From contig JAWBON010000025.1 of assembly GCA_038826135.1 (NCBI GenBank), forward strand, positions 8,859 to 17,346: DNA of 8,488 nt, given 5' to 3'. The position numbers and the translations under genes were made by a program. Origin of the DNA: Candidatus Odinarchaeota archaeon. Lineage in GTDB: Archaea; Asgardarchaeota; Odinarchaeia; Odinarchaeales; Odinarchaeaceae. This document shows positions 2,392 to 8,488 of this stretch, piece after piece. Numbering within the stretch: the stretch's first letter is position 1; the number at the start of each line of letters is the position of its first letter. The notes below the pieces were generated by a model. It worked only from the letters and a program-made list of their open reading frames with translations, did not search any database and was not told the DNA's origin.

Positions 2392-2931
2392 ATGACAGGG
2401 GAAATTAAGCTTTACACTTTGCACACAGGGGAGTGCGACCCTAAGAAGTGCACTTCGCTGAAACTAGCCCGTTTTAAACTTGTAAAATTAATAAAAAAAA
2501 TCATTTTTCTACCTGAAAATGTTATAGTACTTGACCCTTTCACTGGTAAATCAGTTTCAAAAGAGGATAAACCTATTATTGAAAGAAACGGGCTGGCGGT
2601 TTTAGACTGTTCTTGGAATAATGTTAAACCTGAAGTTTTTGAGAGAGCACCCGGAGAACATAGGGCTCTACCTTTTCTGGTAGCGGCTAACCCGATTAAT
2701 TACGGTAAACCGTGTAGGCTTAGCAGCGTGGAGGCTTTAGCTGCAACACTTATAATAATAGGTTATGTTAAACAAGCGGATGGGCTTCTAAACATATTCA
2801 AGTGGGGTCCTCATTTCAAAAAATTAAATGAAAACTATTTATCCAAATATAGTAGTGCGCAAACTAGCCTACAGGTTGTAGAAGAGCAGAATAAGATTAT
2901 AGAGAAAATGAGAGCTAGGTCAGGAGAGTAG
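2392..2931 (+). CDS. tsr3: 16S rRNA aminocarboxypropyltransferase Tsr3 (DUF367 family)
   Basis: Motifs ECDPKKCTSLKL, LDCSWN, HRALPFLVAANPINYGKPCRLSSVEALAA and FKWGPHF. ATG 2392 is preferred to the track's TTG 2380 because GGAG (2382-2385) lies upstream of it. Confidence 0.95.
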   Translation: MTGEIKLYTLHTGECDPKKCTSLKLARFKLVKLIKKIIFLPENVIVLDPFTGKSVSKEDKPIIERNGLAVLDCSWNNVKPEVFERAPGEHRALPFLVAANPINYGKPCRLSSVEALAATLIIIGYVKQADGLLNIFKWGPHFKKLNENYLSKYSSAQTSLQVVEEQNKIIEKMRARSGE

Positions 2932-3280
2932 CCCCCCTTCTGTTACGATGGTCTTGTTACCAAAACCATCCTAGCGGCATTAAACTAAGCGCCCTACCCG
3001 CTTTTTCAGCCAGGTTCTTCATCAAAAGCCTATTTGGGCTTGCTCCCCGGTGCGGGTCGTTTCAATATAACTCTTTAGGTCTTCAGCGGGAATACCGCCG
3101 TCGCCGACGGTTAACTCGAGAAACTCTCAGCCGCTTCATCACCATCTCAAAAGAGGTATGCCGTTTCTGTACCCGTACTATGAGTCTCCTCATGTGGCTT
3201 ATGCCACACCAGTACCTGGAAGGAGGGGGGAACTTCCTCAGTGCAGAGCACCGGAAGCCGCTCTTCCTCTCCTAGCTCTC
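2910..3280 (-). ncRNA. rnpB: RNase P RNA, archaeal type A
   Basis: The minus strand carries the conserved regions in order: GAGGAAGUUCCCCCC (3239-3225), ACAGAAA (3170-3164), UGAAAC (3064-3059), GGAGCAAG (3046-3039), GGUAGGGCGCUUAG (2998-2985) and AACAGAAGGGGGGCUA (2944-2929). Helices: P1 AGGAGAG/CUCUCCU, P2 GCGGC/GCCGC, P6 pseudoknot CCAGGU(3219-3214)/ACCUGG(3015-3010), and P15-P16 present. The exact ends are inferred from the P1 pairing. Confidence 0.95.
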
Positions 3281-5486: not shown

Positions 5487-5630
5487 GTGCATCACTAAAT
5501 TGCGCCAAACGAGAATCAACCTTAACAGCACGACGCTCGGACGATTAGTAGCGGCATGCTAAACTAGTCGGCCGAAGCCTTCTAGCGTACACACCCGCTC
5601 TATCAACCCGGTCTTCTACCGGAGTCCTCG

Positions 5631-5686
5631 TCCCTGACCAACCGTAACAGTCACCTATTACGGCCGGGTTACCCCGCGATCAGGGA
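5631..5686 (-). other. Expanded, branched helix 98 (ES39 position) of 23S rRNA
   Basis: A closing stem UCCCUGA/UCAGGGA encloses two hairpins: CGGG-GUAA-CCCG (5676-5665) and CCGUAA-10 nt-UUACGG (5663-5642). It sits where E. coli has only a short H98 hairpin. Confidence 0.75.
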
Positions 5687-5866
5687 GTGGCTATCTCTTT
5701 TCAGGCCGCGTTTCAGGCTTAGATGCTTTCAGCCTTTACCGCTTACGGCGTGGCTGCCCGGCATTGCCCACTCGGACAACCGGTAAACTAGTGGCCGCGG
5801 CGCCCCGTTCCTCTCGTACTAAAGGCACCTTACCCTCAGATAGCCAACACTCCCAGCAGATAAAAT

Positions 5867-5909
<43 letters not shown>

Positions 5910-6545
5910 TTAATAGGCGAACAACCTCACCCTTGGTGGCTGCTGCACCACCAGGATAGGAAGAACCGACATCGAGGTAGCAAGCCGCGGGGTCGATGTG
6001 GACTCTTGCCCGCGACGACTCTGTTATCCCCGGGGTAACTTTTCTGACACCTCCAGCCCTCACCAAGAGGGACATGAAGGATCGCTAGGCCAGTCTTTCG
6101 ACTCAGGATTCCTTTCGATTCAGAATCCTGTCAGGCCGGCTTTTGGCCTTGCCCTCTACGGCGGACTTCTAACCCGCCTGAGCCGACCTTTGGGCGCCTC
6201 TGATATCTTTTCAGAGGCGTGCCGCCCCAGCCAAACTGCCCACCTACAGGTGTCACCGAGGCGAACCTCGGATTAGGAATACAGTCATAGAAGGGTGGTG
6301 TTCCATTATCGCCTCCCCCAGCTCCCGAAGAGGCTGGGATCGACGGCTCCCACCTACACTCTGCATCCACAACCGTATCCCAACTGTAAGCTGCAGTAAA
6401 GCTCCACGGGGTCTTCTTTTCCCGCTGGGAGTCCCTAGACTGTTCGCTAGGCTGTAGGTTCACCAGGTTCTAGGCAGGGACAGCGGGGCGCTCGTTGTTC
6501 CCTTCATGCACGTCGGTACTTATCCGACAAGGCATTTGGCTACCT

Positions 6546-6575
6546 TTCTCTCGAGAAATCTTCTTGATTTCCCGT
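6546..6575 (-). other. 30-nt archaeal bulge-helix-bulge intron in 23S rRNA after E. coli-equivalent A1927
   Basis: ACGGGAAAUCAAGAAGAUUUCUCGAGAGAA interrupts the conserved CUCUUA|AGGUAGCC. It folds as ACU/GGU helix, AAA bulge, CUCU/AGAG 4-bp helix, UAA bulge, and a 9-bp intron stem with a 5-nt loop. Cutting after the second nt of each bulge rejoins the canonical sequence. Confidence 0.92.
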
Positions 6576-7388
6576 TAAGAGAGTTATAGTTACTCCCGGC
6601 GTTTAGCGGCGCTTCTTCCGGTTGAACCCGGCTTTCACGGACCGCCACTGGCCAGGATTCAGCTTCCGTACACACCCTTACGGGCTAGCGGAAACCTATG
6701 TTTTTATTAAACAGTCAGCACCCCCTAGTCACTGCGACCTAGGATCCCAAGCTGAGCTTAAGACCCCAGGCACCCCTTCTTCCGAAGGTACGAGGCTAGT
6801 TTGCCGATTTCCCTTGCCTAGAGTATCCTGATACGCCTTAGGCTCCTCACCTAGGGGCACCTGTGTTGGTTCTGGGTACGGGCATGGTGGATCCTTCCTG
6901 TCTTCCTTTTCACGGGTTCTCGGAGTTGATCGAAGCCCCCTATAACGGGAGCCCATTCGCGCTTTATCTTGGTTCTCGCCTTTACGGCCCTCCCCAAGGT
7001 TATACGCTTAGACAGGGCGAGAACCCTGCTCGACCTATCCGAAAACGTTGGAAAACAGGCTTGTGTCGCCACACGTACCTCCATGGTACCGGAATATAAA
7101 CCGGTTTCCCTTTTGACACTCTCGAGTTACGGAGTATCTTAGGACCGACTTACCCTCGGCTGACGACGCATCGCCGAGGAACCCTTGCCCTTTCGGCGGC
7201 CGAGATTCTCACTCGGCTGCGCTGTTACTACTACCGGGATCTGCACTTCCGATCGGTCCACTGGACCTTACGGCCCAGCTTCTACCCAACCGGGACGCCC
7301 TCCTACCAGATCACAACATACATTGTGCTCTGGGGTATCGGTGGCTGGCTTTAGCCCCGTCCATTTTCGGGGCCCACATCCTCGGTGG

Positions 7389-7431
<43 letters not shown>

Positions 7432-8488
7432 TACCTTCCCACTGTCTAAGGATGTGGACGCCCTTCGTTTTTACACTTAGCCAACACTTTGGGACCTTAA
7501 CCCCAGTCAGGGTTGTTCCCCTCTCGGTTCAGGAGCTTACCCCCTGAAACCCGTCTCCAGTCTTCTACGGCGCCTGCAAGTTCGGAGTTTAAAAGGAAAG
7601 CGAAAGCTCGCGCTTCCTAACTTCCCAATTAGTGCTCTACCTCACAGGCTGCCTCTGACTGGGCTTGGCTGGGACCCAACTTCGGAGGGAACCAGCTATC
7701 ACCAGGCTAGATTGGTCTTTTGCCCCTATCCCCAAGTTATGGGAGCGAATTGCACGTCAGCAACCCTTCAGTCCTCCACCAAGGTTTCCCTTGGCTTCAA
7801 CTTACTCAGGGATAGATCGCCTGGTTTCGGGTTTTATAATCGTGACTCCAGGCCCTTTCAGACCCTGCCCCTCACCGGTCAAGCCGGCTGCGGGCGTATC
7901 GGTTTCCCTTCGTCACTGGAGATAATCTCCTTAGACTCGCCACGACTATAAACTCCCCGGCCCGTGATTCGAGACGGAAGGCGTAACCTTGGTCCTCTTC
8001 CCTCGTTTCCTTCGGGAAGACTCTACCCTTTCAGGCTACGCCCCTCTTTAACCTTCTGGTTTCAGACACTTTTCACCCTCCTACCGGAGTACTTTTCAGC
8101 TTTCCCTCACGGTACTATTGCGCTATCGGTCTTGGGTAGTATTTAGGGTTAGGAGTTGGTGCCTCCTATCTTCCCGCGGGAATACCGACCCACGGTACTC
8201 TGGGACACCCGCCCAATACCTTTCCGATTACATCTACGGGGCTATCACCCTCTATGGCTCATCTTTCCAGATGAATTCAACTTCTCAGAGTAGGTAGAGG
8301 CGAGGCCCTGAACTCCACATCCCCTCTAAGTTTCCTTAGAAGGTTCGGTTTGCCCTTTTCCCCTTTCAGTCGCCCATACTCAGGGAATCCCTATTGGTTT
8401 CTCTTCCTCCCCCTACTAAGATGCTTCAGTTCGGGGGGTTCTCACTCCCATAAGGGAGCGCCAAACCTTATTAGGGTCTGGCAGGAAG

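Follow-up and report, generated by a model that had tools for sequence, protein, structure and literature searches.

A probable minimal bulge-helix-bulge intron at position 1927 of an Odinarchaeum-type 23S rRNA gene

Architecture of the insert

The single 23S rRNA gene of G000, the genome of a hot-spring Asgard archaeon (Odinarchaeum-type), carries an insert of 30 bases at E. coli position 1927 (L1927) that is, very probably, a minimal, ORF-less archaeal bulge-helix-bulge (BHB) intron spliced by EndA and RtcB. The host genome is a 1.26-Mb MAG of 105 contigs that is 93% complete; the window considered here, i.e., the whole stretch of DNA analyzed, is 8,488 nt long. Because contig C25 (17346) ends where the window ends (8488), the first 123 model positions at the 5' end of the 23S rRNA gene are absent. 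No 16S rRNA gene was found anywhere in the assembled MAG, and the rRNA operon is incompletely assembled. An initial annotation, prepared from the letters alone, had placed a 30-nt BHB intron at position 1927 in the 23S rRNA of a probable Asgard ribosome. The anatomy of the insert, its exact presence or absence in relatives, its pattern of conservation and comparative data all agree with the first part of this reading, and the second holds as well, given that the genome belongs to the same phylum as Atabeyarchaeia-1 (CP147779.1) and Loki_b32. The relevant features, in window coordinates, are as follows.

5525-8488, reverse strand: 23S rRNA gene (Rfam RF02540, LSU_rRNA_archaea, 2750 bits, model positions 124-2987)
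6546-6575, reverse strand: predicted BHB mini-intron, 30 nt, at E. coli position 1927 (L1927), delimited by the Rfam alignment insertion and by intron-less alleles
6578-6584, reverse strand: 5' exon part of the motif, with outer strand ACU (6584-6582) and central strand CUCU (6581-6578), read from the sequence
6575-6577, reverse strand: 5' bulge UA/A, predicted to be cut between 6576 and 6575, based on intron-less alleles and on variants in G002 and Loki_b32
6552-6574, reverse strand: intron hairpin, with a 9-bp stem (6574-6566 with 6560-6552) and a 5-nt loop (6565-6561), from the minimum free energy (MFE) fold
6548-6551, reverse strand: intron strand AGAG of the central 4-bp helix, read from the sequence; RGRG in 18 of 19 introns
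6545-6547, reverse strand: 3' bulge AA/A, predicted to be cut between 6546 and 6545, based on the sequence and on variants
6542-6544, reverse strand: 3' exon strand GGU of the outer helix, pairing with ACU 6584-6582
6592-6597, reverse strand: helix 69 5' strand GGGAGU, from the Rfam consensus structure line

The insert is the sole large insertion in the local Rfam alignment, where 31 positions of the gene stand against one model position, between CUCUUA and GGUAGC. In the RNA sense, the region reads ...AUA ACU CUCU UA / A CGGGAAAUC AAGAA GAUUUCUCG AGAG AA / A GGU AGCC, a parsing that, together with the intron limits, agrees letter for letter with that proposed initially. Excision of 6575-6546 restores CUCUUAAGGUAGCC, which corresponds both to the Rfam consensus region and to the intron-less sequence of two other genomes of the genus, G001 and G003; the earlier expectation that excision would restore the exon sequence is thus matched exactly by both genomes. 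A second copy of the intron was not found when the G000 genome was searched by blastn-short, and membership in a mobile hairpin family repeated in this genome was accordingly rejected. At 30 nt, the insert contains no reading frame and offers no room for a LAGLIDADG endonuclease.

The elements listed above compose a canonical hBHBh' motif, in which a 3-bp outer helix (ACU/GGU) is followed by bulges UAA and AAA placed around the central CUCU/AGAG helix and by a 9-bp inner helix. When a 57-nt segment containing the motif was folded, an MFE of -18.1 kcal/mol was obtained (z = -4.3), with none of 200 shuffled sequences being as stable. The MFE structure comprises a 5-bp central helix and a 3x3 internal loop in place of the 3-bp outer helix, and is a near-equivalent of the canonical BHB. 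In such motifs, each strand is cleaved between the second and third bases of its bulge. The cut sites were assigned from the alleles that lack the intron exactly, together with variants in the bulges: the 3' bulge reads ACA in G002 and UAA in Loki_b32, variants that are incompatible with a cut one position earlier and agree with a cut after the second base.

Distribution within the genus and across Archaea

Among the four genomes available for the genus, the intron is present in G000 and G002 and precisely absent from G001 and G003, which read CTCTTAAGGTAGCC without interruption at the insertion site. Over some 2650 nt of 23S rRNA, no other indel separates the four genomes, and the intron is also the only genus-specific insertion in comparison with eight other Asgard 23S rRNA genes. 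The introns of G000 and G002 differ at 5 of 30 positions, of which four lie in the 5-nt loop and one is the middle base of the 3' bulge, while all 22 paired bases are identical; the chance that all five changes would fall within the eight unpaired positions is small (hypergeometric p ~ 4e-4). The two copies are clearly homologous, although strongly diverged at free positions.

That the insertion is an artefact of assembly or binning is vanishingly improbable. The genome is admittedly a 105-contig MAG, with a contig ending inside the 23S rRNA gene, but the intron is also found, with substitutions of its own, in G002, an independent single-contig genome, and dozens of independent assemblies contain BHB inserts at L1927. 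Moreover, re-sequencing of the LCB_4 rRNA operon by long-range PCR gave a sequence identical to the assembly (PMC9246712), which likewise speaks against an artefact if G002 corresponds to LCB_4.

The relationships of the four genomes bear on the history of the intron. The 23S rRNA tree yields the quartet (G000,G001 / G002,G003), with a bootstrap value of 87 and with 20 informative sites, as compared to 2 and 5 for the other arrangements. Flanking non-rRNA DNA, in which G000 is the most divergent (~74% vs. 80-82% identity), weakly favours the same quartet. As the intron occurs on both sides of this split, at least two events are called for. G002 and G003 differ at only 26 of 2620 rRNA positions (99.0% identical 23S rRNA), yet only the former contains the intron; this near-identity, together with copies in G000 and G002 that are homologous yet diverged, favours an ancestral intron. 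As such, the ancestor of the genus probably had the intron, followed by two precise losses, a direction of change that we infer.

With this, the genus Odinarchaeum, probably including the closed Ca. Odinarchaeum yellowstonii LCB_4 reference genome, joins the hosts of L1927 introns. No mention of rRNA introns in Odinarchaeum was found in the literature searched, and a study of Asgard rRNA expansion segments states only that known intronic regions were removed (PMC7594248). Already known were the L1927 lineage in Crenarchaeota (PMC2602781) and BHB introns of less than 50 nt in the 16S rRNA of Thermoproteales (PMC4496867). In practice, organisms carrying the intron will show a 30-nt discrepancy in 23S rRNA annotation, in rRNA alignments and with probes or primers that cover the CTCTTAAGGTAGC region.

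The occupancy of L1927 was considered more broadly in a phylum survey, in which 139 genomes of a 400-genome sample gave a match, in a pattern scan of reference genomes, which offered at least 16 usable archaeal 23S rRNA sites among the matches listed (most of these being chance hits in bacteria) and so serves as a sample of archaeal sites, and in a scan of metagenomes. Within the phylum, inserts of 29-31 nt were found at L1927 in four genomes of Asgard family f9, including Loki_b32, along with a 49-nt insert in Atabeyarchaeia-1 and long inserts in G022, G151 and G286. Both intron-less (G001, G003) and endonuclease-bearing (the Odinarchaeota AUK032 MAG) alleles, the two kinds envisaged in the initial annotation, were seen in Asgard archaea. 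The metagenome scan provided 28 contigs with 17 distinct L1927 versions of 29-44 nt. Among the matches listed in the reference-genome scan, the L1927 inserts were of the following lengths.

Bathyarchaeia MAG: 26 nt
Sulfolobales MAG (as labelled): 33 nt
Pyrobaculum MAG (as labelled): 33 nt
Methanodesulfokora: 41 nt
Wolframiiraptor: 44 nt
Methanosarcinales MAG: 45 nt
Geocrenenecus: 57 nt
Fervidicoccaceae MAG: 131 nt
Pelearchaeum: 556 nt
Desulfurococcales MAG: 585 nt

The L1927 introns of the Sulfolobales- and Pyrobaculum-labelled MAGs are nearly identical, and both MAGs contain an extra insertion some 25 nt downstream, after CCTTGCCGGGTAAG; near-identical rRNA in MAGs labelled as different orders suggests a problem of binning or labelling.

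In total, 19 L1927 introns, ranging from 26 to 585 nt and drawn from at least five lineages (Asgard, Thermoproteota, Korarchaeia, Bathyarchaeia and Methanosarcinales), were tabulated. In 18 of these, RGRG precedes the last two intron bases and pairs at all four positions with exon CUCU, both bulges are of 3 nt and the inner helix comes next, with interiors being unrelated. GGU of the outer helix pairs at all three positions with ACU (or ACC) in all 19. The exception to the BHB pattern is a 251-nt AT-rich insert at L1927 in G151 (C165), which forms no BHB with the boundaries used. That RGRG/CUCU pairing and the bulges are kept despite unrelated interiors points to selection for the BHB rather than to an expansion segment.

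This pattern weighs against the possibility that the 30 bases are not removed from mature 23S rRNA, where they would form, beside helix 69, a small expansion hairpin specific to the lineage. Expansion segments are indeed known in Asgard rRNAs (PMC7594248), and the hairpin is stable, with folding at 37°C together with the 5' strand of helix 69 leaving that helix and a free hairpin in place. However, nothing in such a hairpin would account for 18 of 19 unrelated inserts keeping both an RGRG complementary to exon CUCU and a pair of 3-nt bulges. The insert is, moreover, exactly absent from the close relatives G001 and G003, and it interrupts a universally conserved segment next to the B2a bridge (PMC2602781). 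Retention as an expansion hairpin is thus considered highly improbable, with a spliced BHB intron remaining the preferred reading.

Other inserts were noted near L1927. Group-I-like inserts occur at 23S rRNA position 1923 in G141, G317, G073-075, G114, G112 and G135, and at position 1931 in G129; these Asgard inserts are of ~800 nt, contain a group-I-like GGGAGTCGTTAAATCTGGCTATATGCGGG and lie at a distance of four bases from the BHB site, on its upstream or downstream side. Consequently, the same few bases host both classes of intron within one phylum, and the 23S rRNA region around 1927, a well-known intron hot spot, proved to be one in this survey as well. In G202 (~30 nt) and G247 (~57 nt), inserts are found about seven bases upstream of L1927, between ...ACUAUAAC and UCUCUUAAGG. 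Falling inside the 3' strand of helix 69, these are possibly further mini-introns at another site.

Relation to the mobile L1927 lineage and other introns

Endonuclease-bearing introns at the same position offer the closest comparison. In the Odinarchaeota AUK032 MAG, a 583-nt L1927 intron (L068 954-1536) encodes a protein of ~168 residues (frame at L068:954-1457, reverse strand; LAGLIDADG_1, 1.5e-15), as does, in the Desulfurococcales MAG, the 585-nt L1927 intron (L089:880-1464; ~168 residues, LAGLIDADG_1, 8e-12). Among solved structures, the AUK032 protein is best matched by 3e54, described as an "rRNA intron-encoded endonuclease" (4.8e-42). This structure is of I-Vdi141I, encoded by intron Vdi141.L1927 (PMC2602781). 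In both MAGs, the LAGLIDADG frame extends to the last intron base and appears to stop only at TAG in the 3' exon (AGG TAG). The earlier statement that position 1927 carries longer LAGLIDADG introns in crenarchaeal thermophiles is upheld by Vdi141.L1927 of Vulcanisaeta and by the intron encoding I-ApeKII of Aeropyrum (PMC2602781), as well as by the AUK032 and Desulfurococcales introns described here.

The insertion point of the mini-intron within TTAA is the same as that of Vdi141.L1927 from Vulcanisaeta distributa and of the Aeropyrum pernix K1 intron (Nomura et al., 2008; PMC2602781). With the endonuclease-bearing L1927 introns, it shares the exon bases of the BHB, the first bases ACGGG... 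and the last bases ...CYCG-RGAG-AA. More broadly, the ends ACGGGA... and ...YCYCG-RGAG-AA are common to the mini-intron and to the AUK032, Desulfurococcales, Fervidicoccaceae, Pelearchaeum and Wolframiiraptor introns, although these shared ends are partly forced by the BHB, such that the free signal amounts to only ~4-5 base pairs. Unlike Vdi141.L1927 and the I-ApeKII intron, the mini-intron is of 30 nt and frameless, and is found in an Asgard host rather than in a crenarchaeote. Being of 30 nt and lacking a reading frame, it cannot home by itself.

The mini-intron is proposed to belong to the mobile L1927 lineage as a member reduced to its hairpin, most likely by decay; full-length members of the lineage encode a LAGLIDADG homing endonuclease of the I-Vdi141I type. 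When the insert was first described as an ORF-less relic, the absence of an ORF was correctly seen; its standing as a relic is plausible, resting on ends shared with endonuclease-bearing introns, with a signal of ~4-5 bp. What the survey brings to light is the endonuclease-bearing form together with hairpin remnants of 26-49 nt across Asgard, Thermoproteota, Korarchaeia, Bathyarchaeia and Methanosarcinales.

The target of I-Vdi141I reads CCTGACTCTC^TTAA^GGTAGCCAAA, a site common to the eukaryotic I-PpoI and the Aeropyrum I-ApeKII (PMC2602781). The mini-intron is inserted inside the TTAA of this target, and places the half-sites 30 bp apart. The split site had previously been likened to an I-CeuI-type target; instead, it is that of I-Vdi141I/I-ApeKII/I-PpoI (CTCTC^TTAA^GGTAGC). 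The I-CeuI site is the bacterial/plastid counterpart, with the intron at 1923. Homodimeric LAGLIDADG enzymes bind a contiguous site of 22-24 bp, and it is from such contiguous binding that protection of the mini-intron allele would follow. It is conceivable that the 30-bp separation of the half-sites would shield the single rRNA operon from an I-Vdi141I-type endonuclease circulating in Odinarchaeia.

Other introns resemble the mini-intron in part. Hairpin BHB introns of <50 nt are known in the 16S rRNA of Thermoproteales, such as Pog.S1205 (Jay and Inskeep, 2015; PMC4496867). These are alike in combining a BHB with a single hairpin, in occupying a conserved rRNA site and in being patchily distributed, yet differ in gene (16S rather than 23S rRNA), site and phylum. 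In 1991, Kjems and Garrett reportedly described ORF-less BHB introns of 56 and 54 nt in conserved domains of Staphylothermus marinus 23S rRNA, and are said to have proposed a conformational change of the rRNA upon splicing. Such a change recalls the competition between the BHB and helix 69 considered below, although the S. marinus introns are nearly twice as long. The same few conserved bases are also occupied by the Physarum group I intron PpLSU3, with I-PpoI, and by archaeal group I introns at LSU positions 1923 and 1931 (PMC2602781; Nawrocki et al., 2018, PMC6125680). Group I introns, however, are self-splicing ribozymes of several hundred nt, whereas the mini-intron has no ribozyme core and would depend on EndA and RtcB.

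Predicted splicing and competition with helix 69

In the pre-rRNA, exon positions 1919-1925 would pair with exon positions 1929-1931 and with intron AGAG, generating a helix, a 3-nt bulge, a 4-bp helix, a second 3-nt bulge and a further helix, atop the 9-bp intron hairpin. EndA would then cleave after base 2 of each bulge, following which RtcB would ligate the exons (predicted junction, CUCUUAAGGUAG) and probably also circularise the excised 30-mer. Only after splicing would bases 1919-1924 be free to serve as the 3' strand of helix 69. We infer cleavage, ligation and the 30-nt circle from the motif, the enzymes encoded and the published behaviour of this class of introns, and the known workings of BHB introns are unchanged by the mini-intron.

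Both enzymes are represented in G000. Three matches to PF01974 (102, 77 and 66 bits) were obtained for EndA, including one complete frame of 189 residues on contig C45; the two of the three that are found at overlapping ends of contigs C72 and C48 are probably one gene. [quoted passage not shown] RtcB is also present (PF01139, 495 bits). The gene, at contig C16:2586-5357, is one frame of 995 residues in which ~470 residues, resembling an intein, stand between the parts that match Pfam positions 1-50 and 49-426. Many tRNA genes of G000 are predicted by ARAGORN to be interrupted, with intron coordinates that are too unreliable for BHB geometry to be checked.

The presence of RtcB also speaks against the possibility that EndA excises the insert and the two halves of the 23S rRNA stay unjoined, leaving mature rRNA fragmented at 1927, as with bacterial intervening sequences. 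In archaeal tRNA and rRNA introns, BHB cuts are followed by ligation. Furthermore, the published Vdi141.L1927 has the same exon sequence at the insertion site as do the introns compared here (PMC2602781). In favour of fragmentation, unusual archaeal rRNA topologies, either circular or permuted, have been reported (PMC12918454, PMC7758197). Overall, fragmentation is given a very slight chance, and splicing with ligation of the exons is retained as the preferred reading.

Bases 6584-6579 (ACUCUC), which contribute to the BHB, are in mature rRNA the 3' strand of helix 69, paired to GGGAGU at 6597-6592 (Rfam). Because the same bases are used by both, the BHB and helix 69 are mutually exclusive, such that helix 69 could finally form only once the intron has been removed. 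When a 77-nt segment including both helix 69 strands was folded at 37°C, helix 69 together with a free hairpin was favoured over the canonical BHB (-16.8 vs. -13.5 kcal/mol). At 70°C, the corresponding values were -2.7 and -2.2 kcal/mol, and the MFE structure was BHB-like. Since helix 69 is locally favoured at 37°C, the BHB would need kinetic or protein help to form. This competition is no argument against splicing, given that all L1927 introns compared share these exon bases.

Through the six shared bases, it is conceivable that splicing controls when the B2a bridge helix can form, thereby acting as a checkpoint in large subunit assembly. Nonetheless, retention of the mini-intron for some benefit, whether such a helix 69 checkpoint or the protection from endonucleases raised above, rather than as a relic that is merely tolerated, is considered unlikely. 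G002 and G003 constitute a natural intron-plus/minus pair that could serve for tests of homing immunity and of a coupling between splicing and the folding of helix 69.

Elsewhere in the window, the RNase P RNA (2917-3273, reverse strand; Rfam RF00373, 191.5 bits) was seen to contain, relative to the model, a 25-nt hairpin insertion at ~2948-2972, near the 3' end. The four members of the genus all have this insertion, and several compensatory substitutions are seen in its stem. The flanks of the 25-nt insertion do not form a canonical BHB, and it may be a relaxed intron or a lineage-specific helix. A second insertion in the same RNA, of ~45 nt, is located in a variable helix.
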